Part shown: positions 8,191-61,413 of the stretch, in pieces | How positions within the stretch are numbered: position 1 is the stretch's first letter | Layout: each line of letters begins with the position of its first letter | The notes under the pieces: model-generated | What the model was told of the DNA's origin: nothing | The model's input: only the letters and a program-made list of their open reading frames with translations | Database searches by the model: none | From: an uncultured archaeon | Lineage (GTDB): Archaea; Thermoproteota; Nitrososphaeria; Nitrososphaerales; Gagatemarchaeaceae | DNA length: 64,000 nucleotides | Assembly (NCBI GenBank): GCA_963817525.1 | Contig: CAWFOU010000001.1 | Location: 736,001-800,000, forward strand | Direction: 5' to 3' | Translations under genes and position numbers: made by a program

Positions 8191-8230
8191 GTGCCTCGGC
8201 CGGGAGTGGAACCCCCATATGGGTGCTTTT
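8191..8230 (-). repeat. Degenerate direct copy of tRNA-Glu 3' end (att-like site)
   Basis: GTGCCTCGGCCGGGAGTGGAACCC versus ATGCCCCGGCCGGGATTTGAACCC at 9239-9262. Confidence 0.8.
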
Positions 8231-8388
8231 CAACTCGTGAGACTTGTCAGGAACCCACTTCTTCCATGCTAAAGGTATGCGGTCCATGCGCTGCCTCGGG
8301 GTATCGTCGAACGGACTGACCTTTTCGCCTCCTCCACGAAAATTGGTCGGAAAGAGGTATTCAACCCACTGGAACGACTTGGTCACGG

Positions 8389-9156
8389 TCACTCGTTGGG
8401 GAAGCTCACGTCGACATAGGTGGCAGGCGCCGAGATTTCCAATGACTGTAGATGGAAGCCAATAGAAATGCATAGGCTAGGTCCCCCGACCGCACGAGAA
8501 AAGTCCGAGGCATTGACCTCAGCCGCGGAGTAGCCGACCGCGAGCGGAAGGTAATAGCAGCCGCTGAAGCCCTGGAACGACCGGTCGAGAAACCCTGTCG
8601 TCCCAGGCACGGGCTCGACCAAGTAGTCTACCGTGAACGTGGAGTTCTGAGGGATCTCCGTAAGATTCTCGGAGGGAGGAATTACGCTTAGTTGAAAGGA
8701 ACTATTGTCGTTCTCAAACTCACCTCCTGGTCCGTAGTCACCAATCCCGATGCTGTTGCCGAGCGTTCCGTTCGGGAAGTTTTTGGCCAATTGGGGATTG
8801 GTTACGATATACGTAAGTCGTACGCAGAAGGTCGCTCCAGAATAGGGGATCACGAGCGCGGGTAAGGTGCTTGTGAAGTTCCCCGTATTGGTGAAGTTCG
8901 AATAAGTAGCGGGACCGACGGGCACGCTGTGAAAGGCCCCGCAATGGACGGAGGACGTCTCTACGAGGGTTGTCGTCGAGGTGACCGTGGAGTTCGACTG
9001 GGTCGTGATCATCGCCGTGCTCGAGACCGTAGCGGTAAGTGTCCCTGTCTGCCGGACGCCGGTCCCCGCCAGGTACCCTGCGCCAAGGCTCGCAATCACG
9101 AGGATCACGATCAGGCCCACCAGGGCTTCGCTCCGCATCGCTCCCCGGAAGCGCAA
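8389..9156 (-). CDS. Membrane-anchored secreted protein with Thr-rich stalk
   Basis: N-terminal TM, poly-Thr tract, several NxS/T sequons. Confidence 0.7.
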   Translation of the reverse strand: MRFRGAMRSEALVGLIVILVIASLGAGYLAGTGVRQTGTLTATVSSTAMITTQSNSTVTSTTTLVETSSVHCGAFHSVPVGPATYSNFTNTGNFTSTLPALVIPYSGATFCVRLTYIVTNPQLAKNFPNGTLGNSIGIGDYGPGGEFENDNSSFQLSVIPPSENLTEIPQNSTFTVDYLVEPVPGTTGFLDRSFQGFSGCYYLPLAVGYSAAEVNASDFSRAVGGPSLCISIGFHLQSLEISAPATYVDVSFPNE

Positions 9157-9239
9157 GACGGGTGGGGCGCCTATTCAACCCCTGGGTAGAATGTTCTATC
9201 TCCCGTTTGGGCATGAGGTTATTTGAGAATCAATATGGA

Positions 9240-9314
9240 TGCCCCGGCCGGGATTTGAACCCAGGTCACTACCTCGAGAGGGTAGTATGCTTGGCCGGAC
9301 TACACCACCGGGGC
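9240..9314 (-). tRNA. tRNA-Glu (CTC)
   Basis: Cloverleaf GCCCCGG...CTACC-CTCTCGA-GGTAG...TTCAAAT...CCGGGGC-A. Confidence 0.95.
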
Positions 9315-11619: not shown

Positions 11620-12128
11620 GAAGAACGCTTCAGTTTCGTGATGCTCAATATCTCGTCGGGCCTCGCGACCGACATGGCCGTGTACTCGCCGAGGACCTCT
11701 ACGTCGAAGACCTTGTCCGGAGAGTTCAGGTTGACCTTGCGGTCGACGACCCCCGCTATGGTGTCGATGAGCTCCTTCCTTGAGACGGGGGAGTCTCTCT
11801 CAGTGATGTCGATCCTGAAAGACTCCCCTGGAAGGACCTGAGCCGCGATCTGGGCCGCGGCCTCCTTTATCTGCTCGAGGTGGGTGTCCACCACTACGTC
11901 GACAGGGATCAGCCTCTGGATGTAGTGGACCCTGAACGGCTCCGACCTCACATAGTCCCTCATGAAGGCGATGAAGTCCCTCGAGTTCTCTATCTCGATC
12001 TCCAGGATGCCGTCGAACCCGGCCTTTTCGATGTGGAGCTTCCTGTGGCCCCTCTGCAGGGCGATCTCCTTGAACTCGGCGGAGGCCTTCGCCTCGCTCC
12101 CCTTCTGCGAGGTGACCAATAGGTTCAA
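11616..12128 (-). CDS. THUMP-domain RNA-binding protein
   Basis: SFRIDI..R, KVNLNSPDK.F.VEVLG. Confidence 0.85.
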   Translation of the reverse strand: MNLLVTSQKGSEAKASAEFKEIALQRGHRKLHIEKAGFDGILEIEIENSRDFIAFMRDYVRSEPFRVHYIQRLIPVDVVVDTHLEQIKEAAAQIAAQVLPGESFRIDITERDSPVSRKELIDTIAGVVDRKVNLNSPDKVFDVEVLGEYTAMSVARPDEILSITKLKRSS

Positions 12129-12739
12129 GCGCCCAACTCACCCTCCTGAATCCTGACCGACCCCTCCCTTAAAACCTCGACAGTGCCTCCGGAGACTTTT
12201 ACCACCGTCGACTCCTTGCCGTTCAGCTCCCCGCCGTCAATCACGAGCTGCACCCTGCCGCCCAGAGACTTCACCACCTGCGCCGCGGTTCGGCACGAGG
12301 GCTCCCCTGAGAGGTTTGCACTGGTCCCCGTGATCGCGCCGCCTACCTTCCCGGAAAGAGCGAGGCAGACAGGGCTGTCAGGCACCCTCACCCCGAGGAA
12401 CCCGCTCCCCTGGTCCAAGAGGCTCGAGAGGCCGCCCTTCTTCTTGAGCGGGGCGACTATGGTGAGCGCGCCGGGCCAGTGGAGCTCGGCGAGCTTCCGC
12501 GCCACGCCGTTGAGGACCACGAGAGCCTCCGCTGCCGCCGAATCGGTGCACAGCAACGGGACTGGCTTCGCCTGCCGGTCCTTGGCAGCGAAAAGGCGGC
12601 CCACCGCCTTGTCGCTCGTGGGGTCGCAGCCAAGGCCGTATACCGTGTCGGTCGGGATGGCCACCACGCCTCCGTTCTTGACGATGCGTGCCGCCTCGGC
12701 GACCGCCTTGGGCCCCGCGGGGATGCATCGGACTGTCAT
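12125..12739 (-). CDS. tsaC: Threonylcarbamoyl-AMP synthase (TsaC/Sua5 YrdC domain)
   Basis: PTDTVYGL, WPGALT, TSANLSG. Confidence 0.92.
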   Translation of the reverse strand: MTVRCIPAGPKAVAEAARIVKNGGVVAIPTDTVYGLGCDPTSDKAVGRLFAAKDRQAKPVPLLCTDSAAAEALVVLNGVARKLAELHWPGALTIVAPLKKKGGLSSLLDQGSGFLGVRVPDSPVCLALSGKVGGAITGTSANLSGEPSCRTAAQVVKSLGGRVQLVIDGGELNGKESTVVKVSGGTVEVLREGSVRIQEGELGA

Positions 12740-25519: not shown

Positions 25520-26251
25520 CTACTTCCACTTCGTTAGTATCTCCTCTCTGTGGAAGGAGGCTGTCGAGACGAAGAAGAGCAGCGCGTCCACCGCGACCAA
25601 GGCTCCCGCGATTATCACCAGGTTGGTGGCGTCTCCCAGGTTGATCAAGTTCAGTTCTCCGGCGACGTACACCCCAATGAATGGAACGGCTGTCAGCCCC
25701 CCGAGTTGTTGTCCAGCCCTGACGTCGGTCACCCTCGAGGACATGATTACGCTCATCTGTACGCTCATCAACAGCGCGAGCGGAAGAAGCAACAGTATGA
25801 CGATGGCCGAATTCCAGTCCGGGAAGTAGTAGTAACCAAGCTTGCCCTTGGTGGTCAGGTCCATGAGAAGCATGAAGAGCGCGGATCCCCCCAGCGTCGT
25901 GGCCAGCGGTGGAAGGAAGGCGGTCATGCCCTTTCCGAGCAGTATCTCGCCGTCCGTCGTCGGCGTCGCAAGCAGCGGCTCGAGGCTCTTCTCGACCTTT
26001 TCGCCGGCGATGGTGTAGGATGCTATCGGAGTAGAGAGATACGAGCCCAGGATGACGTAGAAGAAGAGGAACGCAGGTAGCAGGACCATCAGCTCTGCGG
26101 GGGACTTCCTCTGGCCGACGAAGCCTATGACCGCGGGGATGAGAATGGCGACGAAAAGCGGAATGAAGACCAGCAAATAGACGATGCCCTTCTTCTTGCG
26201 GATAGTCTTGAAGTCCTTCGCCGCTATGATCCAGGACTGGGAGAGCCGCAC
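25520..26251 (-). CDS. ABC-2 family permease (copy 1)
   Basis: AGEKVEKSLEPLLATP..DGEILLGK...REEILTKWK. Confidence 0.88.
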   Translation of the reverse strand: MRLSQSWIIAAKDFKTIRKKKGIVYLLVFIPLFVAILIPAVIGFVGQRKSPAELMVLLPAFLFFYVILGSYLSTPIASYTIAGEKVEKSLEPLLATPTTDGEILLGKGMTAFLPPLATTLGGSALFMLLMDLTTKGKLGYYYFPDWNSAIVILLLLPLALLMSVQMSVIMSSRVTDVRAGQQLGGLTAVPFIGVYVAGELNLINLGDATNLVIIAGALVAVDALLFFVSTASFHREEILTKWK

Positions 26252-26254
26252 GGT

Positions 26255-26345
26255 CCTTAACTTTCCCCTTCCCTCACCAGCTTCGTGTAGACGTCTTCAA
26301 ACGAGAGGCCGGATCTCTTCGTGAGATTTTCAGGTTCAACCATCC
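26255..26345 (-). pseudogene. Remnant 3' end of the cognate ABC ATPase
   Basis: Reads ..GLSFEDVYTKLVR.., matching the C-termini of the ATPases at 50279 and 60409; the rest is deleted. Confidence 0.7.
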
Positions 26346-26373
26346 ACCGGCATCACCGATGACGTGCCCCGCT

Positions 26374-26652
26374 CTACATACCCGCGCCTGAGCTCTGGAT
26401 AGGCTTGCCATCCACGAGCACGGTGAGTTTTCTCCCAAAGGCCCAGCGCGTCATTCCGAAGTCGACTTCGACCTTGTGGACCTCTGAACTCCCGACATCG
26501 AACGCGAACTTCTTCGCGCCGGGCGAGAAGAGGGATTCGTCAATGACCTTCTGGCCATCCACTTCGATACGGATTGTCTTCATGACCCGGTCGCTATCGA
26601 CTGTGAGCGAGTGCTTCTCCCCCTCGCCCACCTCGAACTTGGATTTTCCCAT
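26374..26652 (-). CDS. Small beta-rich hypothetical protein (paralog of 51232-51528)
   Basis: Near-identical protein sequence to 51232-51528. Confidence 0.75.
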   Translation of the reverse strand: MGKSKFEVGEGEKHSLTVDSDRVMKTIRIEVDGQKVIDESLFSPGAKKFAFDVGSSEVHKVEVDFGMTRWAFGRKLTVLVDGKPIQSSGAGM

Positions 26653-26840
26653 GGCCTTCCAAAGGGTCGAAGCGGATATAAGAAGTCTAAAAAGTAAAAA
26701 TTTTGTACCTGTGGCCGCATTTCATAATGTGGAAGCAGTAAGACAAAGAATGCACATGGTAGAGCCGAAATGATGGACTCGCTCAATAATCCAAAAAAAG
26801 CGGACCCAGGCGCTTAGCAAGCCGGTTGGGCGTGAAAAGT

Positions 26841-37831: not shown

Positions 37832-37904
37832 AGCCCGTTCGTCTAGTGGTCAAGGATAGGGGCCTCTGGAGCCTCTGACCCAGGTTCGAATCCTGGACGG
37901 GCTA
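37832..37904 (+). tRNA. tRNA-Gln (CTG)
   Basis: AGCCCGT...GGGGC-CTCTGGA-GCCTC...CCAGG-TTCGAAT-CCTGG-ACGGGCT-A. Confidence 0.96.
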
Positions 37905-42967: not shown

Positions 42968-43045
42968 TGCGAGGTTAGGGTTGCTTTGCCTAATAATTAA
43001 CTGTTTAGTATGATAATCTCACGCGGAGGCCGCTGTCAAGGAATG

Positions 43046-43086
43046 TTTGAACTAGTTATTTCCATTTTGGAACTAGTTATTTCAAA
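43046..43086. promoter_or_regulatory. Tandem imperfect palindromes, putative TetR operator
   Basis: GAACTAGTTATTTC occurs twice upstream of the SDR gene. Confidence 0.5.
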
Positions 43087-43135
43087 ATACCTTAGGACCC
43101 CGAGACCTGCCGGGCCCGCCATCGGCCGAAGACTG

Positions 43136-43185
43136 CAAAATTCCACCTAAAAGCCCCTAAACAGGTGCAGCCCCTGGACGGGCTA
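43136..43185 (+). repeat. Cassette boundary site 3 (class A)
   Basis: CAAAATTCCACCTAAAAGCCCCTAAACAGGTGCAGCCCCTGGACGGGCTA. Confidence 0.95.
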
Positions 43186-43289
43186 ACTTATCTCCTCAAT
43201 TCCGCCTCTATTCGCGATTCTGAGCATAAATGAGGCCACGCTATCCCCAAGAGCGCATATTGTTGCCCTGAGATGAAATGCTGGACATA

Positions 43290-43317
43290 GGTTCTTTGCG
43301 CCTCCGCCGGGGCATTT
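43290..43317 (+). repeat. 28-bp direct repeat resembling the tRNA-Glu 3' end (second copy 44138-44165)
   Basis: GGTTC(T/A)TTGCGCCTCCGCCGGGGCATTT. Confidence 0.85.
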
Positions 43318-43356
43318 CGCTCGCACGCGAGCGCTCAGACACAATGGATTTCGTAA

Positions 43357-44031
43357 TTATCCGCAGGTGTTGTAGACAGTGTTGATTTCGCCGAAGATCC
43401 AAGTCTCGTTAGAGATGAGCCAAGCACCCCCGACATCGACATATGAGGCGCCCAACCTTACGCTTTCTGCCCAAGGTTGAGTAAGATTCGCACCGCTAGA
43501 AAAAGCCGTGATGGTAGGACCGGATTCGCTTCCCTGCGCGTTGAACGTAGAATTCACGGTAGTTTCCCCCTTGACATTTGCAAAGACTCCAGGGCTAAAG
43601 TCCGTGAAGTTCATGGTGCCGGAGCGTGTCGAGTTGAACATCACATGATACAAGATGTTGATGTTGTAGATACCTGCGTATGCCCCGCTAAAGCCGTTAG
43701 GACTGCATACGAGATTGAGCGTCGCGTTGCTTTCATATTGGGCAACCAGCGCAGTCACATTTTGTGACTGTTCGCTCTGGAGGTGAGCGGCAAAGGCGCT
43801 CATGACCTCCTGGCTGGAGTTAATCGTCAACGTGGTCGTGCTCACCATGATTGTAGTCTGCGTGTTTGTTTGGTCAACCGTCGTAGTAGTAGTTCTGATT
43901 GAACCTGGACTGACGAGAGAGTAGGCGATTCCCGCGCCGATCAGCAGTCCGACGAACAGCAGGGCGACGGCAGTACGACCGACAGCGCGATGAGCGGTCT
44001 TGCGGGCCATCCGAACGTCGGTCCTGAGCAT
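43357..44031 (-). CDS. Membrane-anchored protein with Thr stalk and possible NTF2-like domain
   Basis: TM segment, TTTTT tract, ...GGAWLISNETW. Confidence 0.7.
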   Translation of the reverse strand: MLRTDVRMARKTAHRAVGRTAVALLFVGLLIGAGIAYSLVSPGSIRTTTTTVDQTNTQTTIMVSTTTLTINSSQEVMSAFAAHLQSEQSQNVTALVAQYESNATLNLVCSPNGFSGAYAGIYNINILYHVMFNSTRSGTMNFTDFSPGVFANVKGETTVNSTFNAQGSESGPTITAFSSGANLTQPWAESVRLGASYVDVGGAWLISNETWIFGEINTVYNTCG

Positions 44032-44200
44032 ATGCCCGGCCCCATTAATACGGTTCGACAGAATGTTCGAGAGGCCCTGCCCGAGCTCCGCTACGCTTTG
44101 TCTAAAATGAAGTTGCAGGGCAATCGCCCATCATAAGGGTTCATTGCGCCTCCGCCGGGGCATTTACCCGTTTTCGCCCTGAACCCGACTATGGCAGCGC

Positions 44201-44250
44201 CAAATTCCCGCGTAAAAGCCCCTAATCAGGTGCAGCCCCTGGACGGGCTA
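44201..44250 (+). repeat. Cassette boundary site 4 (class A)
   Basis: CAAATTCCCGCGTAAAAGCCCCTAATCAGGTGCAGCCCCTGGACGGGCTA. Confidence 0.95.
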
Positions 44251-44477
44251 CCTATTTTAGCCTCTGTTTGCCTTATACGCCATGATTTACACTAATCCCT
44301 CGTAGAAAGCTTCAATTCGACTATATCACGATTCGATTTTCGGGACGACGCGTACCCAGCGCCGTCTTACGTGAGAGCCTACTCTCAATATTCATAAGAT
44401 TTCATAGTGCCGTGATTCTTAAAAATTGTTTCGTGAGCAACATCTCTATCCTTCGCCTTCTCTCTCCTACGACCAGC

Positions 44478-46988
44478 TCATGGCGAGGCAACACTGGCCG
44501 ATGGGGCGGGAGGGCTCTGAGGAAGCTGGACCTTCTTCGTTCCAGTGACTCCGACATCGCGATTCAGCCTCCCGTAGAATGGGACCTTCAAGAAGTCCGT
44601 AACGAGGAAGGATACCAACGTGTAACCCCAGACGAACCCTGCCAGCTTCCATCCCATTGCGGGAAGCAGGATGCCGTAGACCGTGATTATCGTCGCCGTC
44701 AGCTGCGTGAGTACGACCGCGAGGAGCAACACCTTCGCAGGCCTTACCGACCAGAATCGCCCCTTCGTCCTTGCCACAAAGAGCTCGAGGTGCCCGGCCA
44801 CGGAGAGCTTCAAGTATATGAACGACTGGAGGACGAGCGGGTTCAGGTGCAGGACGTCCAGCCCGATGATGAGTATCCCGAAGGACGACGCCGTCCCGAT
44901 GCCTCCCAGGAACGACGAGATTGTCAGGAGCGTGCGCATGTTCCACTTCTCGGGCTTCTTCGAGATCTTGACGTTGTCATAGGCTATCGTCATGATTGGC
45001 ATGTCGTTGAGGAGGGCCAGAAGGACAATCATCAGCGCTGTGACAGGATACAGCTGAAAAACGATGATCGAGAACGAGATGAAGAAGAGGACCCTGAACG
45101 TCTCGCTGATGCGATAGATCGCGTAGTTGGTCATGCGCTGGAATATCTCCCGGCTCGAGGTGACGGCGTCGATGATCACGGAGAGGCCGGGCTTCGTCAG
45201 GACCACGGCCGCGGCTGACTTCGCCGCGTCGGTGGCTCCCGCCACCGCTATCCCACAGTCGGCCTTCTTCAGCGCCGGGGCGTCGTTGACCCCGTCGCCG
45301 GTCATGCTGACGATGTGGCCCTTCTTCTGGAGGAGCTCGACGATCTTGTACTTGTGCTCAGGGAACACCTCGGCGAAGCCGTCGACGCCTTCTATCGCCG
45401 CCTCCGCTTCGCTATCCGACTTGCCGAGGATTGACGACGAGGTGACTATGTTGGTGCCCAGCCCCACCTCTCGGGCCACCTCCTTCGCGATGGCCACGTG
45501 GTCGCCGGTTACCATCTTGACGGTAATGCCCATGGACTGCGCGGTCTTGATCGTCGCGGCGGAGTCCTCCCGCGGCGGGTCGGTGAGCGCGACGAGCCCT
45601 ACGAACTTCCACTCCTCCCCGCCGTCGGTCTTGGCCACGCCGAGGGCCCGGTACCCCTTCTCGGCGAAGCCGACGACGTCTTGATTCACGGGGCCCTCGA
45701 CGCCCTTGTCGTGCACCAGAGCCAGGACGACCTGAGGCGCCCCCTTGGTCACCTGGAACCCGGGGCCGTCCTTGCCTTGGGCGGTCGCCTCTGTCCGCTT
45801 CGAGACGGGGTCGAACGGCTTGAACGATGAGACTTTGTAGCTCGATATCGAGGCGGGAACCCCGTCTAGGATCTTGGCCTTCGCGATGATCGCGTCATCG
45901 ATAGGGTCTTTGTCCTCGGCCCGCGAGGCTAGAGACGCGTACAGCAGGACATCGTTCACGGTGTACTTTTCGAAGGTCTTCATCTCGCCCACGGTAAGCT
46001 CGTTCTTCGTTATCGTGCCCGTCTTGTCCGCGCACAGGATGTCCACGCCGGCCATCTCGTCTATGGCGACCAGCTTGCTGACTATGGCCTCCTTCTTCGC
46101 GAGAGCCGACGCACCTACAGTCATGCAGACCGAGAGCACGGCCGGCATCGCCGCCGGGATTGCTGCGACGATGAGGACCAGCCCGAACTGTAGGATGTCG
46201 AGCGGCGCTTGGTTGCGCAGGAGCCCGACTATCGACGTGGCCGTCACCATCGCTATGGCGAGCGCGATGAGATAGTCGCCGATCTTCACCACCGCCCCTT
46301 GGAAGTGGCTCTTGGTGTGCGCCTCCTCGACCAGCCTCGTAGTCCGCCCGTAGAAGGTCTTCATCCCAGTAGTGACGACGAGCGCGTTCATCTCGCCCTG
46401 CCGGACGATCGAGGAGGAGAACGCGACGTCGCCCGAATGCTTCTCCACTGGCAGGGACTCCCCTGTCAGCGCCGATTCGTCGATCTGGAGGTACGCGCCG
46501 TCGACGAGCTTCGTGTCCGCTGGGACGATGTTGCCGAGTCGCAGGCGGACGATGTCCCCCGGTACGAGTTCCTTTGCGGGCAGGTCGGCCCACTTCCCGT
46601 CCCGCAGCACTTTTGCGGTGAGTGCCAGTCTCTTCTTCAGAAGCTCTATCTCGTTGTTGGCCTTGTTCTCCTGCCAGGACCTCACGATGACGTTCACGAC
46701 CAAGAGGGCGCCGATGATGACGAGGTCGTCCCAGTTCTTCAACACCGCCGAGATGACCGCCGCCGCCTCTATCATCCACGGAATCGGTCCCCAAAAATAG
46801 CGGAGGATAGCGACGATTGGGGCGCGCTTCTTCTCGGTTATCTCGTTCGCTCCGTACTGCTGGAGTCTATTGGCTGCTGCTGAAGCGGAGAGCCCTTTTT
46901 CGCTCGTCGCAAGTCTCTTGAACAGTTCCGCGATCGGAAGATCCTTTTCCTCAGCGGGAGTTACGTCGGTCAAGTCAGCTGCCCGCAC
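44478..46988 (-). CDS. P3A-type plasma-membrane H+-ATPase
   Basis: YFWGPIPWMIEAAA, TGES, IPAAMPAV, DKTGT, KGAP, TGDGVNDAP, LLND. Confidence 0.94.
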   Translation of the reverse strand: MRAADLTDVTPAEEKDLPIAELFKRLATSEKGLSASAAANRLQQYGANEITEKKRAPIVAILRYFWGPIPWMIEAAAVISAVLKNWDDLVIIGALLVVNVIVRSWQENKANNEIELLKKRLALTAKVLRDGKWADLPAKELVPGDIVRLRLGNIVPADTKLVDGAYLQIDESALTGESLPVEKHSGDVAFSSSIVRQGEMNALVVTTGMKTFYGRTTRLVEEAHTKSHFQGAVVKIGDYLIALAIAMVTATSIVGLLRNQAPLDILQFGLVLIVAAIPAAMPAVLSVCMTVGASALAKKEAIVSKLVAIDEMAGVDILCADKTGTITKNELTVGEMKTFEKYTVNDVLLYASLASRAEDKDPIDDAIIAKAKILDGVPASISSYKVSSFKPFDPVSKRTEATAQGKDGPGFQVTKGAPQVVLALVHDKGVEGPVNQDVVGFAEKGYRALGVAKTDGGEEWKFVGLVALTDPPREDSAATIKTAQSMGITVKMVTGDHVAIAKEVAREVGLGTNIVTSSSILGKSDSEAEAAIEGVDGFAEVFPEHKYKIVELLQKKGHIVSMTGDGVNDAPALKKADCGIAVAGATDAAKSAAAVVLTKPGLSVIIDAVTSSREIFQRMTNYAIYRISETFRVLFFISFSIIVFQLYPVTALMIVLLALLNDMPIMTIAYDNVKISKKPEKWNMRTLLTISSFLGGIGTASSFGILIIGLDVLHLNPLVLQSFIYLKLSVAGHLELFVARTKGRFWSVRPAKVLLLAVVLTQLTATIITVYGILLPAMGWKLAGFVWGYTLVSFLVTDFLKVPFYGRLNRDVGVTGTKKVQLPQSPPAPSASVASP

Positions 46989-49532: not shown

Positions 49533-50282
49533 TTACTTCCATCGCGTCAGTATCTCTTCCCTGCGGAAGGTAGCCCTCGCTGCGATAAACAGAATCAGGT
49601 CACCCGCGAGCAGTGCCCCCGCGATGAGAAGCAGGCTATTAGTGACGCCGAGGTTGACCAGGTTGATCTCGCCCCCGACGTATATCGCTATGAAGGGGGC
49701 TGCCGCCACTGCGCCGAGCTGCTGCGCGATCCGGACGTCGCTCACTCTCGACGAAACTATCACGTTCCACTCCACGCTCAGCACGACCGCGAGAGGGACC
49801 ATCAGGAACAAGACAATCCAAGAGTTCAAGGTTGGAAAGAAGTAGTAGCCCAGCTTGGGCTCGGTGACCAGATCCATCAGGGCCATGAAGATGACCGACC
49901 CGCTCAGGATCGCGGCCATCGGCGGCAGGAACGCCGAAATCCCTTTGCCGAGCAGGATCTCGCCGTCGGTCACTGGGGCCGCCAGGAGCCGATCGAGGCT
50001 CTTCTCCAGCTTCTCGCCCACTATGCTGTACGACGCAATGTAGGTTGGTATCACGCCAGAGAGCATCAAGAAGAAGAATTGGAACGCGGGCAGAAGTACG
50101 GTCAGTTCCTGCGGTGATGTTCGCTGGCTGGCCGCTCTGAAGTGTTCCAAGTAGTAGATTACTGCAGGGAATAGGATACCTACCATTACGGGTACGAAGA
50201 AAGTGAGGTAGAGTATGTTCTTCTTCCTCAAGAATACCTTGAAGTCCTTCGATGCTATGATCCACGACTTTGCGAGTCTCAT
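49533..50282 (-). CDS. ABC-2 family permease (copy 2)
   Basis: VGEKLEKSL..LL..P..DGEILLGK. Confidence 0.88.
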   Translation of the reverse strand: MRLAKSWIIASKDFKVFLRKKNILYLTFFVPVMVGILFPAVIYYLEHFRAASQRTSPQELTVLLPAFQFFFLMLSGVIPTYIASYSIVGEKLEKSLDRLLAAPVTDGEILLGKGISAFLPPMAAILSGSVIFMALMDLVTEPKLGYYFFPTLNSWIVLFLMVPLAVVLSVEWNVIVSSRVSDVRIAQQLGAVAAAPFIAIYVGGEINLVNLGVTNSLLLIAGALLAGDLILFIAARATFRREEILTRWK

Positions 50283-51202
50283 GTGTCGCCGCGCCTCACA
50301 AGTTTCAGGTACGTGTCCTCCAAGCTCGATCCTACGGTCGTGACAGACCTGACTTGGCCTCCGGCACTATAGATAGCGTCAGAGATGACCACATTCTCGG
50401 TGTCCGGGTCTTTCACGTCGACGGTCAGCGTGTTGCCATCAACGGTCATGTTATTGAGAGGCAGCTTCCTCAGCGCAGCCAGGACCGCGTCGGTCATCTG
50501 CACGAGCTGAATCACCGTCTTCCTCCCGCTTACCGAACGCTCCAGCTCTTGCGGCGTTCCCATCGCCATCAGCTTCGTGTTCAGGATGGCAATCCTGTCG
50601 CAGATCCTCTGGGCCTCGTCAAGATTGTGCGTGTTTAGGAAGATGGTCCGCTTCTCCTTCTTAAGCTCCAGGATGAAGTCCCTCACGGTCTTTGCCGCCT
50701 CGGGGTCGAGGTTCGCTGTGGGCTCGTCCATGAAGAGCACCTGCGGCTCGTGGACGAGGGCGCACGCAATCCCGAGCTTCTGCTTCATCCCTTTCGAGTA
50801 CGTTCCAACAGTGACGTCCCTCTTCTCCCAGAGCCCTAGCATCGTGAGGAAGCGCTGTATGCTCTCCTTCCTCTGCGCCTCCGTGCGGTCGTAGAGCTTC
50901 CCGTAAAAATCCAAATTGTCGTAGGCGCTGAGGTCGTCATAGAGCCCTACGCTATCGGGCACCATTCCTATCACCTTCCTTAGCTTCAGCGCGTCGGCCT
51001 CTTTTCCCACCTCATACCCGGCGACGCTCGCCTCACCGCTTGTCTTCGAGATCAGGCAGCAGAGCATCCGCACCGTGGTAGTCTTCCCCGCCCCGTTGGG
51101 CCCGAGGAAGCCGAAGACCTCCCCATCGTCGACGCGGAGGGTCACGCCATCGACTGCGGTCAGGTCGCCGAACTTCTTGGTAAGGTTCTCGGTCTCAATC
51201 AA
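50279..51202 (-). CDS. ABC ATPase
   Basis: GPNGAGKT, YSKGMKQK, MDEPT. Confidence 0.93.
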   Translation of the reverse strand: MIETENLTKKFGDLTAVDGVTLRVDDGEVFGFLGPNGAGKTTTVRMLCCLISKTSGEASVAGYEVGKEADALKLRKVIGMVPDSVGLYDDLSAYDNLDFYGKLYDRTEAQRKESIQRFLTMLGLWEKRDVTVGTYSKGMKQKLGIACALVHEPQVLFMDEPTANLDPEAAKTVRDFILELKKEKRTIFLNTHNLDEAQRICDRIAILNTKLMAMGTPQELERSVSGRKTVIQLVQMTDAVLAALRKLPLNNMTVDGNTLTVDVKDPDTENVVISDAIYSAGGQVRSVTTVGSSLEDTYLKLVRRGDT

Positions 51203-51231
51203 ACTGCGTCACCGATGAGAAGTGCCCCGCT

Positions 51232-51528
51232 CTATTTGCCCGCGCTAGAACTCTGTACAGGCTTGCCATCCACGAGCACGCTGATTTTTCTCCCAAAGGC
51301 CCAGCGCGTCATTCCGAGGTCGACTTCGACTTTGTGGACCTCTGAACTCCCGACGTCGAAGGCGAACTTTTTCGCGCCAGGCGATAAGAGGGATTCGTCG
51401 ATGACCTTCTGGCCATCCAATTCGATACGGATTCTCTTCATGACCTGATTGGCATCGACCGTGAGAGCGTGCTTCTCCCTCTCGCCTACCTCGAAACTAG
51501 ACTTTCCCACGGGTTTCGAAATAGTCAA
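51232..51528 (-). CDS. Small beta-rich hypothetical protein
   Basis: Paralog of 26374-26652. Confidence 0.75.
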   Translation of the reverse strand: MTISKPVGKSSFEVGEREKHALTVDANQVMKRIRIELDGQKVIDESLLSPGAKKFAFDVGSSEVHKVEVDLGMTRWAFGRKISVLVDGKPVQSSSAGK

Positions 51529-59662: not shown

Positions 59663-60412
59663 TCATTTCCACTTTGTTAGTATCTCTTCCCTCTTGAAGG
59701 TGGCGATGCTCAGATAGAAGAGGAGCAGGTCTGCCACCAGGAAAATGCCTGACATGATGAGCAGATTGATCGTGGTCAATTGAATCACCCCGATCTCCGT
59801 CAGCACGTAGATGATGAAGAAGGGGAAGACCATCACTCCGGTTATCTGCTGCACGCTTCGAACGTCGTTGGCGCGTGCGGATAGGATGACGGTCAGCTCG
59901 ACTGAGAGAATGCTAGCGAGCGGCGCGAGGACGAGTAGGCTCACTCCGAAGCTCCAGTTTGGATAGTAGAGATAGCCTAGCCCGGCGTGAGTGACTAGGT
60001 CTATCAGGACCATGAAGACTACCGAGCTAGCCCAGATCGCGGCAATCGGCGGGATGAACGAAGCGATGCTCTTTCCCAGCAGAATCTCACCGTCCGTCAT
60101 GGGAGTTGCAAGCAGCGGTTCGAGGCTCTTCTGGATCTTCTCGCCGACTATACTGTACGAGGCAATTCCAGCCGGGAGACTCGCCGCTAAGATCACATAC
60201 CAAAACGAAAACGCGTTCAGAAACGGGGCAACGGATGCTGATATGGCCCCTGTGCCAGCGACGCTTTCGATCGCAACAAGTACCGCGGGAAATCCCAATG
60301 CAACACCGAATGGGGACACCATCGTAGCGTAGAGGACCCCCTTCCTCCTCTTGAAAATCTCAAAATCCTTCGACGCGACCGACCACGCGTTCTGCAGGTC
60401 CACTTCTCTCAC
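59663..60412 (-). CDS. ABC-2 family permease (copy 3)
   Basis: VGEKIQKSLEPLLATP...REEILTKWK. Confidence 0.88.
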   Translation of the reverse strand: MREVDLQNAWSVASKDFEIFKRRKGVLYATMVSPFGVALGFPAVLVAIESVAGTGAISASVAPFLNAFSFWYVILAASLPAGIASYSIVGEKIQKSLEPLLATPMTDGEILLGKSIASFIPPIAAIWASSVVFMVLIDLVTHAGLGYLYYPNWSFGVSLLVLAPLASILSVELTVILSARANDVRSVQQITGVMVFPFFIIYVLTEIGVIQLTTINLLIMSGIFLVADLLLFYLSIATFKREEILTKWK

Positions 60413-61329
60413 TGGCTCCTGACCAGTTTCAGGTACACGTCCTCCAGGGTCGAACTCGCCTCCGTGACGAACTGGATACGGCCTCCCGCGGTTACGATTG
60501 CACTCATAATGTCAGGGTTCTCCTTCTCAGGATCACCCACCCCTATGACGAGCTTGTTGCCCTCGCCCACCTCGACGCCTCCGGTTGCGACCATCTTCGC
60601 TGCAGATATGATCACGTTGTTGACGCTCTCGAGCTTGACCACAATCTTCCGGCCGCTGGCCGACCGTTCGAGGTCTGCCGGGGTGCCCAGGGCCATCAGC
60701 TTGGTGTTCAGAATCGCGATCCTGTCGCAGATCCTCTGTGCCTCGTCGAGATTGTGCGTGTTGAGGAAGATGGTCTTCTTCTCCTTCTTCAGGTCGAGTA
60801 TGAAGTCCCTGACCGTCTTGGACGCTTCCGGGTCGAGGTTGGCAGTAGGCTCGTCCATGAACAAGACCTGCGGATCGTGAATGAGAGCGCGCGCTATGGC
60901 GAGCTTCTGCTTCATCCCCTTGGAGAAGGTTCCTGCCGCCAGATCCTTCTTATCCCATAAACCAAGCAGCTTGAGGAAGTATTCTATCCTCTCACTTCTC
61001 TTCGGTTCTTCGACCTTGTAGTATCTGCCGTAGAAATCCAAGTTCTTGTACGCGGTGAGTTCCTCGTACAGACCAACGTTGTCCGGAACCAGTCCTATGA
61101 CTCTCCTGATTTTTGGTTGATCTGAGCTTTTTCCGATGTCGTATTCCCCAATCTTGGCGGTACCGCTCGTCTTCGATATCAGACATGTCAGCATTCGTAC
61201 AGTGGTGGTCTTCCCGGCGCCATTGGGTCCGAGAAACCCGAAGACTTCCCCATCGTCGACGCGGAGGGTAAGATCGTCGACTGCAGTAAGGTCCCCGAAC
61301 TTCCTCGTAAGGTTCTCGGTCTCAATCAA
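60409..61329 (-). CDS. ABC ATPase (paralog of 50279-51202)
   Basis: GPNGAGKT, FSKGMKQK, MDEPT. Confidence 0.93.
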   Translation of the reverse strand: MIETENLTRKFGDLTAVDDLTLRVDDGEVFGFLGPNGAGKTTTVRMLTCLISKTSGTAKIGEYDIGKSSDQPKIRRVIGLVPDNVGLYEELTAYKNLDFYGRYYKVEEPKRSERIEYFLKLLGLWDKKDLAAGTFSKGMKQKLAIARALIHDPQVLFMDEPTANLDPEASKTVRDFILDLKKEKKTIFLNTHNLDEAQRICDRIAILNTKLMALGTPADLERSASGRKIVVKLESVNNVIISAAKMVATGGVEVGEGNKLVIGVGDPEKENPDIMSAIVTAGGRIQFVTEASSTLEDVYLKLVRSQ

Positions 61330-61413
61330 CTTGAGTTGGTTTCGACTGTCCGCGAGATGTGATATATGAATTGAGGCACAGTATGGAAGCCTGACCACTC
61401 TAGTCGACCCCGC

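Follow-up and report, generated by a model that had tools for sequence, protein, structure and literature searches.

Integrons are the textbook platform for gene capture, and those of Archaea have, to our knowledge, been recognized solely through attC-type sites that bacterial models detect. Here, we describe a locus in an uncultured archaeon of the Gagatemarchaeaceae that invites comparison with them. The stretch analyzed (hereafter, the window) comprises 64,000 nucleotides of assembly GCA_963817525.1 (contig CAWFOU010000001.1, positions 736,001 to 800,000), and in it two 28-bp direct repeats enclose a single gene within an array of sites that copy the 3′ end of a tRNA-Gln gene. We consider it likely that each of these repeats is a junction site belonging to an integron-like family of cassettes that spans the genus and has its anchor at the 3′ end of the 23S ribosomal RNA (rRNA) gene. 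The genome is a metagenome-assembled genome (MAG) of 2.82 Mb in 15 contigs, 95% complete with 8.75% estimated contamination; below it is called G000, other G-numbers denote genomes of the same genus, and C-numbers denote contigs. Its matches to archaeal rRNA models and its tRNAs with introns agree with an archaeal origin.

Two described kinds of system come closest. The first is formed by sedentary chromosomal integrons and clusters of attC sites lacking integron integrases (CALINs), including archaeal ones. As set out in the main text of Ghaly et al. 2022 (PMC9668308), these have long one-directional arrays of mostly single-gene units of about 1 kb, repeats that are more alike within a lineage, units that are reshuffled between genomes, often no integrase nearby, and a cargo of toxin-antitoxin pairs, small enzymes and unknowns; the 23S-type family resembles them in each of these respects. 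Unlike integron sites, the 23S-type site has no attC hairpin, and inspection of the consensus showed neither GTTRRRY nor RYYYAAC ends; what it copies is a stable-RNA gene end, and its array starts at the 23S gene, not at attI beside intI. DNA folds of both strands of both window copies gave z = 0.06, −0.19, −0.26 and 0.10, and with no significant fold an attC-type hairpin mechanism is excluded. No IntI was found in our searches with PF00589, which were not IntI-specific. The second kind is formed by integrative elements at the 3′ ends of tRNA and tmRNA genes, including tycheposons, in which, as far as the main texts or abstracts describe them (PMC6563490, PMC8371274, 10.1101/2020.12.28.424599), incoming DNA carries the 3′ end of its target gene, repeated use of one site builds arrays and displaced gene-end fragments lie at the far end, a layout to which that of the 23S-type arrays is similar. 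Here, in contrast, the target is the 23S rRNA end with its processing stem, and the units are gene-sized, lack an integrase of their own and number up to 66 per array. In the way it works, the 23S-type family is similar both to sedentary integrons or CALINs and to tandem integration at tRNA ends, and by the features tested it belongs to neither.

We found no description of such a system in the literature on archaeal integrons, Gagatemarchaeaceae, thaumarchaeal elements, tRNA cassette arrays and 23S attB sites, as covered by main texts and abstracts; supplements may list such sites. The main text of Krupovic et al. 2019 (PMC6563490) reports 68 thaumarchaeal elements, with 39 in tRNA genes, 15 in intergenic regions and 14 in protein genes. 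The terms “rRNA” and “23S” are absent from that main text and from the main text of a review of archaeal tyrosine recombinases (PMC8371274), the latter also lacking “ribosomal RNA,” and the main text of the archaeal integron paper (PMC9668308) contains neither “Thaumarchaeota,” “Nitrososphaer-” nor “tRNA.” The main text of Sheridan et al. 2023 on the Gagatemarchaeaceae has 0 uses of “integron,” “repeat,” “mobile,” “integrase,” “cassette” or “genomic island.”

The 28-mer GGTTC(T/A)TTGCGCCTCCGCCGGGGCATTT occurs exactly twice in the window, both times on the forward strand, as GGTTCTTTGCGCCTCCGCCGGGGCATTT (copy 1) and GGTTCATTGCGCCTCCGCCGGGGCATTT (copy 2), which agree at 27 of 28 positions (Table 1). 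Allowing up to three mismatches produced no third match in the window and 0 matches in 100 shuffles. As the preliminary description of this locus had stated, the pair differs by a single mismatch, encloses one gene, here an open reading frame (ORF) of 224 amino acids (aa) on the reverse strand, and lies just inside two tRNA-Gln-type sites (sites 3 and 4) that bound it on both sides, their stretches of likeness to the tRNA-Gln 3′ end being 43146-43186 and 44211-44251.

The sequence that the repeat copies lies on another contig. An exact copy at C7:574152-574179, the last copy of this genome's main array, abuts the 3′ end of the 23S rRNA gene and matches copy 2 at 28/28 and copy 1 at 27/28 positions. 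The Rfam archaeal large-subunit rRNA model aligns over positions 1-2987 of 2987 on the minus strand (C7:574179-577845, with 16S upstream), so that the 23S gene is complete to the model end, with the first core directly after it and the target gene intact. The same arrangement was found in genome G007, where the 23S alignment ends at position 11839 of the stretch L004 and a core follows immediately. On the rRNA strand, the anchor reads ...GUUCAGCCCGUCCACUACCUAUAGCUCAACGUGUGAAUGAA at the 23S end and then AUGCCCCGGCGGAGGCGCAAUGAACCC in the trailer. Between this trailer and the leader sequence immediately preceding the 23S 5′ end (...GCCGUGCAUUGGGUUCGCGCAAGCAUCCGCCGGGGAUG), a duplex is predicted at −66.8 kcal/mol, a value reached by 0 of 300 shuffled trailers (−42.5 ± 4.4 kcal/mol); the corresponding duplex in G007 is predicted at −62.3 kcal/mol. 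Reverse-complemented, the 28-mer thus consists of the final 2-3 bases of 23S and about 25 nt of trailer, the 3′ strand of the pre-23S processing stem, with a 23S/trailer boundary that is good to about 3 nt, the last model positions being unpaired.

The resemblance extends beyond the 28-mer. An ungapped profile built from 191 copies in nine genome stretches has a 25-nt core, AGGGTTCATTGCGCCTCCGCCGGGG, with more than 1 bit per position. Its edge is sharp on the side away from 23S and decays slowly on the 23S-tail side, where the flank consensus CATTTCACCCACACGTTGGGCTATAGGTAGTGGACGGGGTGAAC is the 23S tail read backwards, a weakly conserved copy of the last ~35-45 nt of 23S. In BLAST, the 23S end plus trailer matched single copies over up to 63 nt, 33 nt of 23S included; copy 1 matches over 44 nt (88.6%), of which 11 nt are the final bases of 23S, and copy 2 over 30 nt (100%). 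In all six genomes fetched (G000, G007, G009, G015, G018 and G021), the terminal repeat of the main array abuts the 23S 3′ end. Longer 23S 3′ fragments are found at the far ends of arrays or in satellite arrays: 91 nt at 98.9% identity at the distal end of a G018 array, 161 nt where a second array of that genome begins, and 102 nt (83%) near the distal array end in this genome. Displaced fragments at distal ends are the layout expected if incoming DNA carries the end of the target gene and pushes older copies outward.

Searching the whole genome, we found 23 copies with up to six mismatches (21 without contig C13), with exact 28-mers at C7:572794 and C7:574152, and 37 nhmmer profile hits (32 without C13). 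The hits cluster on C7 at 535994-574192, 593-594k and 665-668k, and elsewhere at C1:355-358k, C1:541-546k, C1:729900, C8:20518, C8:21866 and the window pair. Contig C13 (8.3 kb) duplicates the stretch C1:541270-545883, with four repeat copies of identical hit scores, which suggests either redundancy in the assembly or the presence of a second strain in the bin. Within the genus, 19 of the 22 other genomes contain a 26-nt pattern (up to three mismatches allowed); of 18 genomes from other genera of the order, none does, and a reversed control pattern had 0 matches in all genomes. Copies within an array point the same way (66/66 in G015, 51/51 in G021, 48/48 in G009 and 39/39 in G007; 14/14, 13/13, 13/13, 13/13 and 8/8 in another five stretches), except in a cluster of three at C1:352-360k, where one copy is on the plus and two are on the minus strand. 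The largest arrays have up to 66 copies and span up to about 115 kb.

To compare the units of these arrays, the stretches were cut at cores into 262 units (median 1059 nt, interquartile range 730-1735), which were compared all against all; a pair was called homologous if the units came from different genomes and matched over at least 60% of the shorter unit's interior. This resulted in 47 homologous pairs between genomes, one of which is actually an rRNA region. In all 40 pairs that could be judged on both sides, neither neighbor was homologous; the other seven pairs had at least one neighbor missing. High-identity pairs are alike from one core to the next, as in a G007/G015 pair with 94.8% identity over 883 nt. 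Variant bases on the 23S-tail side of the core travel with the unit on that side, which places the switch point inside the core, a coarse estimate from 16 and 14 pairs and ungapped columns. Repeat score drops with distance from 23S in five of six arrays (Spearman rho −0.20 to −0.61; p < 0.05 in three). This polarity lends weak support to the probable entry of new cassettes beside 23S. For units whose longest ORF is co-directional with the rRNA, the median distance from the stop codon to the following core is 56 nt, and that from the preceding core to the start codon is 117 nt. The cargo of the G007 array (78 ORFs scanned) includes MazE/PIN pairs, ParE, PIN_2, glyoxalase-type proteins, methyltransferases, HxlR, RibD_C, AHSA1, an AlbA_2/Schlafen protein and many ORFs without a family; none of the 78 has a recombinase domain.

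These patterns suggest a scheme in which each unit, made up of leader, gene, 23S-tail mimic and core, would be a mobile cassette exchanged by site-specific recombination of core against core. The scheme resembles that of elements that integrate at a tRNA 3′ end with a copy of that end. A recombinase would act in trans, and a tyrosine recombinase would be the likeliest candidate.

The window pair can be read in the same terms. Along the gene strand, the locus runs from Gln site 4 through 28 nt of weakly 23S-tail-like sequence, the core of copy 2, the 106-nt leader, the gene, a 39-nt partial mimic of the 23S tail, the core of copy 1 and 87 nt to Gln site 3. On this strand, copy 2 is the junction site upstream of the cassette, with only a short and weak 23S-tail-like flank beside it, and copy 1 is the cassette's 3′-terminal junction site. 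The half of the leader nearest copy 2 (about 44082-44137) matches leaders beside 12 other repeat copies at 80-95% (BLAST). The leader also carries an AT-rich TATTAAT ~20 nt before the ATG, which may be a promoter box. At the other end, the spacer reads CATTTCGCTCGCACGCGAGCGCT against CATTTCATTCACACGTTGAGCTAT in 23S, and a short palindrome is present. Both window copies share one direction, and the gene is oriented like most array units. The pair is a two-copy satellite inside the tRNA-Gln array, on a contig other than that of the 23S-anchored array. The nested unit is therefore one complete 23S-type cassette plus the core of what preceded it, held as the content of a tRNA-Gln-type cassette. 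Two routes to this state fit: core-against-core recombination may have inserted the unit at a solitary core that the Gln cassette already contained, or the Gln cassette may have taken in part of a 23S-type array as its content. Both site families recur in sister genomes in separate arrays, and Gln-type and 23S-type sites were never found together in 11 related loci checked, a small sample that nevertheless marks the nesting as unusual. The suggestion in the preliminary description that cassettes carry sites of a second specificity thus holds insofar as a different site family is nested in the Gln cassette; the specificity named there, tRNA-Glu, does not, as the exact copy is at 23S.

Table 1. 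Coordinates, strands and characteristics of the features discussed, in window positions.
Feature	Position	Strand	Characteristics
tRNA-Gln(CUG), array anchor	37832..37904	+	tRNA calls, Rfam
tRNA-Gln-type site 3	43128..43188	+	mimic of tRNA-Gln T-arm and acceptor end; outer boundary of the enclosing cassette
repeat copy 1	43290..43317	+	nhmmer envelope 43276-43327, E = 1.3e-9
spacer, cargo stop codon to copy 1 (39 nt)	43318..43356	-	degenerate mimic of the last 23S bases
cargo gene, 224 aa	43357..44031	-	N-terminal membrane anchor, Thr/Ser-rich stalk, ~150-aa domain
5′ leader of cargo gene (106 nt)	44032..44137	-	
repeat copy 2	44138..44165	+	nhmmer envelope 44118-44168, E = 1.3e-11
tRNA-Gln-type site 4	44193..44253	+	starts ~28 nt past repeat copy 2
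tRNA-Glu(CUC)	9240..9314	-	gene compared in the preliminary description
genuine tRNA-Glu(CUC) 3′-end repeat	8192..8214	-	GGGTTCCACTCCCGGCCGAGGCA; 20/23, ungapped, T-stem kept

The enclosed gene is the single gene of the nested cassette and has no recombinase domain. Neither Pfam nor NCBIfam has a family that its protein matches. The protein is a member of a ~200-aa anchored-protein family with nine matches in this genome and further matches in 15 of 22 sister genomes (24-38% identity), several of which sit within 23S-type arrays elsewhere. A SnoaL/NTF2-like fold is only a lead, with a protein-atlas score of 0.86, below the 0.9 level. The preliminary description had called this cargo the same type of protein as that encoded beside tRNA-Glu, which is borne out for the anchor-plus-stalk architecture, common to it and to the genes beside tRNA-Glu and tRNA-Gln, and is not borne out by BLAST, in which these genes showed no detectable sequence similarity. 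Nor did the 22 sister genomes hold a copy of the cargo gene at a tRNA-Glu locus, an arrangement that the same description had envisaged.

Several observations weigh against a mobile, 23S-anchored cassette family. Recombination itself is inferred from comparative patterns in sequence, and no recombinase has been assigned to the family: PF00589 has no match on contig C1, its sole match in the single-contig genome G007 lies 36 kb from the array and beside a tRNA, and the integrase family found beside small arrays such as that on C8 was not found in G018, despite the arrays there. The products expected of such exchange also did not turn up. No excised form, empty site or core joint was seen in low-depth contigs of four metagenome runs, and the empty version of the locus raised in the preliminary description was found in none of 22 sister genomes, where our DNA search matched repeats and neither the cargo gene nor the 87-nt flank. 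That 87-nt flank, to the left of copy 1, had aligned by eye as the truncated leader of a next cassette; a profile of 13 leaders (the window's own and its 12 BLAST matches) gave no hit to it at E ≤ 10. The polarity signal is weak, with no trend of score with distance in G009, and the longest ORF is co-directional with the rRNA in only 167 of 259 units (64%, from crude ORF calls). Lastly, the likeness of the repeat to a tRNA-Glu end is rarer than chance: a two-block resemblance of this kind, with a 10-mer shared with a tRNA end and GGTTC upstream, was found in 31 of 200,000 random genomic 28-mers, a post hoc count in which some of the 31 are tRNA genes.

The small arrays offer a clue to the enzyme. 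A conserved locus in G000:C8 (20518-23955), G012:C7 and G020:C86 consists of tRNA-Glu(UUC), a tyrosine recombinase, a DnaJ-like gene and then repeat copies, two, seven and three of them, respectively, inverted relative to the tRNA in all three genomes. The recombinase is 94-96% identical among the three genomes and is split into ORFs of 142 and 284 aa in G000; the tRNA at this type of locus carries an intron, and the DnaJ-domain protein is a membrane protein. The recombinase family is present in 11 of 23 genomes (E ≤ 1e-10) and is not adjacent to the main arrays. Other small repeat arrays lie near a different integrase and tRNA-Trp (G021:C3 and G002:C25). We take the association with tRNA-Glu(UUC) and its integrase as a lead to the enzyme rather than to the identity of the site. 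A further reading, possible but doubtful in our view, would have integron-like capture with the 23S end as primary site served in trans by tRNA-associated tyrosine recombinases such as that beside tRNA-Glu(UUC). The tRNA-Glu likeness of the core on its reverse strand would then let one enzyme family use both kinds of site, cassettes would move between rRNA- and tRNA-anchored arrays, and the window would hold one such transfer. At another locus in this genome (C9:35-4676), a copy of the tRNA-Glu(UUC) 3′ end (…CCCGCCCGGGGCA) stands at the start of C9, with shorter att-like repeats at C9:4664 and C1:3375 and a PF00589 integrase at C9:3838-4266. This locus looks like an ordinary integrase-bearing element at tRNA-Glu(UUC), and is possibly a strain variant of the C8 locus.

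According to the preliminary description, the ends of the repeats match the 3′ end of tRNA-Glu, and secondary att sites of this sort offer a means to load cargo and move it between tRNA loci. On this reading, the 28-mer would be a tRNA-Glu-type att site within a Gln cassette, used by a tRNA-Glu-specific integrase. We consider this improbable, though the matching blocks are real: the 3′ end of tRNA-Glu(CUC), ...GGGTTCAAATCCCGGCCGGGGCA followed by T, shares both GGTTC and GCCGGGGCAT with the 28-mer, and the rarity of the two blocks together, the repeat copies at tRNA-Glu(UUC) loci and the anchor-plus-stalk gene beside tRNA-Glu(CUC), with a true Glu repeat after it, all speak for a connection. 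What the site copies, however, exactly and with a colinear flank, is the 23S end, where the main arrays start, while in all seven genomes with mapped arrays (G007, G009, G012, G015, G018, G021 and G022) tRNA-Glu(CUC) either lies over 1 Mb away from the main array or sits on a different contig. To align with tRNA-Glu, the 28-mer requires a 3-nt insertion between its 5-nt and 10-nt blocks and has no T-stem, whereas the genuine tRNA-Glu(CUC) 3′-end repeat in the window and the Gln sites keep length and stem. This genuine repeat also shares a similar downstream flank with tRNA-Glu(CUC) and follows the same rule as the Gln sites, with stems kept and the loop changed; it and the tRNA bracket the anchor-plus-stalk gene, of 255 aa (8389-9156). 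The asymmetry of the conservation profile is the wrong way round for a reading in the tRNA sense, the repeats are inverted relative to tRNA-Glu(UUC), and other small arrays lie beside a different integrase and a tRNA-Trp. As for the enrichment of the 10-bp match, GCCGGGGCAT has three matches in the window versus 0.21 expected, and two of the three are the repeats themselves. Of 200,000 random genomic 28-mers, 1811 shared a 10-mer with any of 27 tRNA ends (the last 28 nt of each, as 25 nt plus 3 downstream), among them the 31 given above that also had GGTTC upstream. We read the tRNA-Glu likeness as a by-product of GC-rich stem sequence or, at most, as a distant relationship between the sites.

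We also give little credence to a reading of the repeats as expression or RNA-processing signals (a terminator, a promoter or leader module, or a processing-stem decoy) that are alike by selection or gene conversion, in arrays formed by ordinary duplication and gene turnover. It would accommodate the position of cores behind a stop codon and ahead of the next start, the GGAGG followed by ATG on the gene strand, and the fact that the core at the anchor is one strand of a functional RNA stem. It does not accommodate cassettes that recur among unrelated neighbors in every evaluable pair, with homology stopping at cores, nor arrays that are strictly one-directional when about 36% of longest ORFs point the other way. 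The copies, moreover, carry only one strand of the stem and are also found at unrelated loci, such as the tRNA-Gln array. A related candidate, the repeat as a coding start (GGAGG, a spacer and ATG AAC CC on the reverse strand), was ruled out: roughly one copy in three carries other bases in place of this ATG, and ORFs that begin at it are short and unrelated, with no conserved ORF starting there.

The nesting itself was checked in Logan contigs from four soil-metagenome runs of one study, possibly the source samples. Both outer joints are bridged with 0 differences, by contigs of 335 nt (covering 43054-43388) and 1024 nt (covering 43592-44500), and also over 42973-43320 and 44100-44250; these contigs were built separately, so the nesting does not stem from this assembly alone. 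A false join at repeats between a tRNA-Gln array and a 23S-type array is therefore scarcely credible, even in a MAG with the contamination given above and a duplicated contig equal to part of C1, as the shared repeat is only 28 bp long and the joints recur unchanged in those runs.

If the 23S-anchored cassettes are what they probably are, an uncultured and abundant genus of soil archaea keeps arrays of swappable cassettes, up to about 115 kb long, that use a different kind of site, with tRNA-anchored arrays in the same genomes. Were recombination real, the ends of rRNA operons would join the safe harbors of prokaryotic mobile DNA, and a large flexible gene pool (surface proteins, toxin-antitoxin pairs and small enzymes) would be identified for a lineage whose ecology is little known. 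The nested case would then let one ask how cassettes cross between platforms of different specificity. The locus also calls for caution with short matches to tRNA ends, which can mislead where GC-rich stems like the acceptor stem occur elsewhere.

The surrounding features of the window were characterized as well. Rfam has no hit in window positions 37000-64000 except tRNA-Gln. The tRNA-Gln(CUG) gene is followed by 12 sites that copy its 3′ end (39436-61463). In these sites, the T-stem is kept and the loop changed, and the upstream arms fall into two classes, AAAAGCCCCTAAA... and TGGATTCG.ACCT.... The array carries PIN/MazE pairs, HxlR with TetR and SDR genes, a P-type ATPase, two ABC-2 transporter pairs, a GNAT gene and glyoxalase/EVE/MarR genes; the 436-aa ORF directly after tRNA-Gln encodes a membrane-anchored protein, not an integrase. 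Three paralogous ABC modules, each an ATPase with an ABC-2 permease (25524-26660, 49537-51518 and 59667-61336), share 72-87% DNA identity, and two of them lie within the array, 10,127 bp apart. Beyond the tRNA-Glu(CUC) cassette (8192-9314, minus strand) are a 136-aa ORF and a PIN-domain protein, with no integrase nearby.

In G007, a five-gene module adjoins the 23S-proximal repeat of L004 (C1:1586390-1591747), with a homologous block in G021:C9. The products are a wHTH-like protein, a 658-aa P-loop ATPase whose similarity to AAA and VirB4/TraC proteins is weak, a 129-aa protein, a DnaQ-like 3′-5′ exonuclease and a 376-aa protein; the module possibly serves in defence or is what is left of an integrated plasmid. 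Weighed as a recombinase beside the anchor and set aside, the 376-aa protein has few relatives (six found), and the GPD...EFK pattern at its C-terminus may be PD-(D/E)xK nuclease-like. When the five proteins were compared with the genome studied here, only the ATPase matched (C7:694788-696341), and there was no homologue of the 376-aa protein. Within the G007 23S gene, at L004 12286-14154, Rfam RF00028 identifies one or more group I introns (54.6 bits); another, partial match lies near 12286-12350, and the gene also contains a LAGLIDADG-looking ORF; the 23S gene of the genome studied here (3667 nt) has no RF00028 match.

Finally, arrays similar to the Gln-type one were found in G009:C2 and G008:C14. 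In the genome studied here, a second tRNA-Gln-like 3′ end, GACCCAGGTTCGAATCCTGGCCGGGCTA, lies at C1:83371, upstream of the window by 650 kb, and is followed after ~800 bp by a Gln-type site (84133-84188). A further small array of Gln type may thus be present, at a Gln isoacceptor gene not called cleanly by the tRNA finders.

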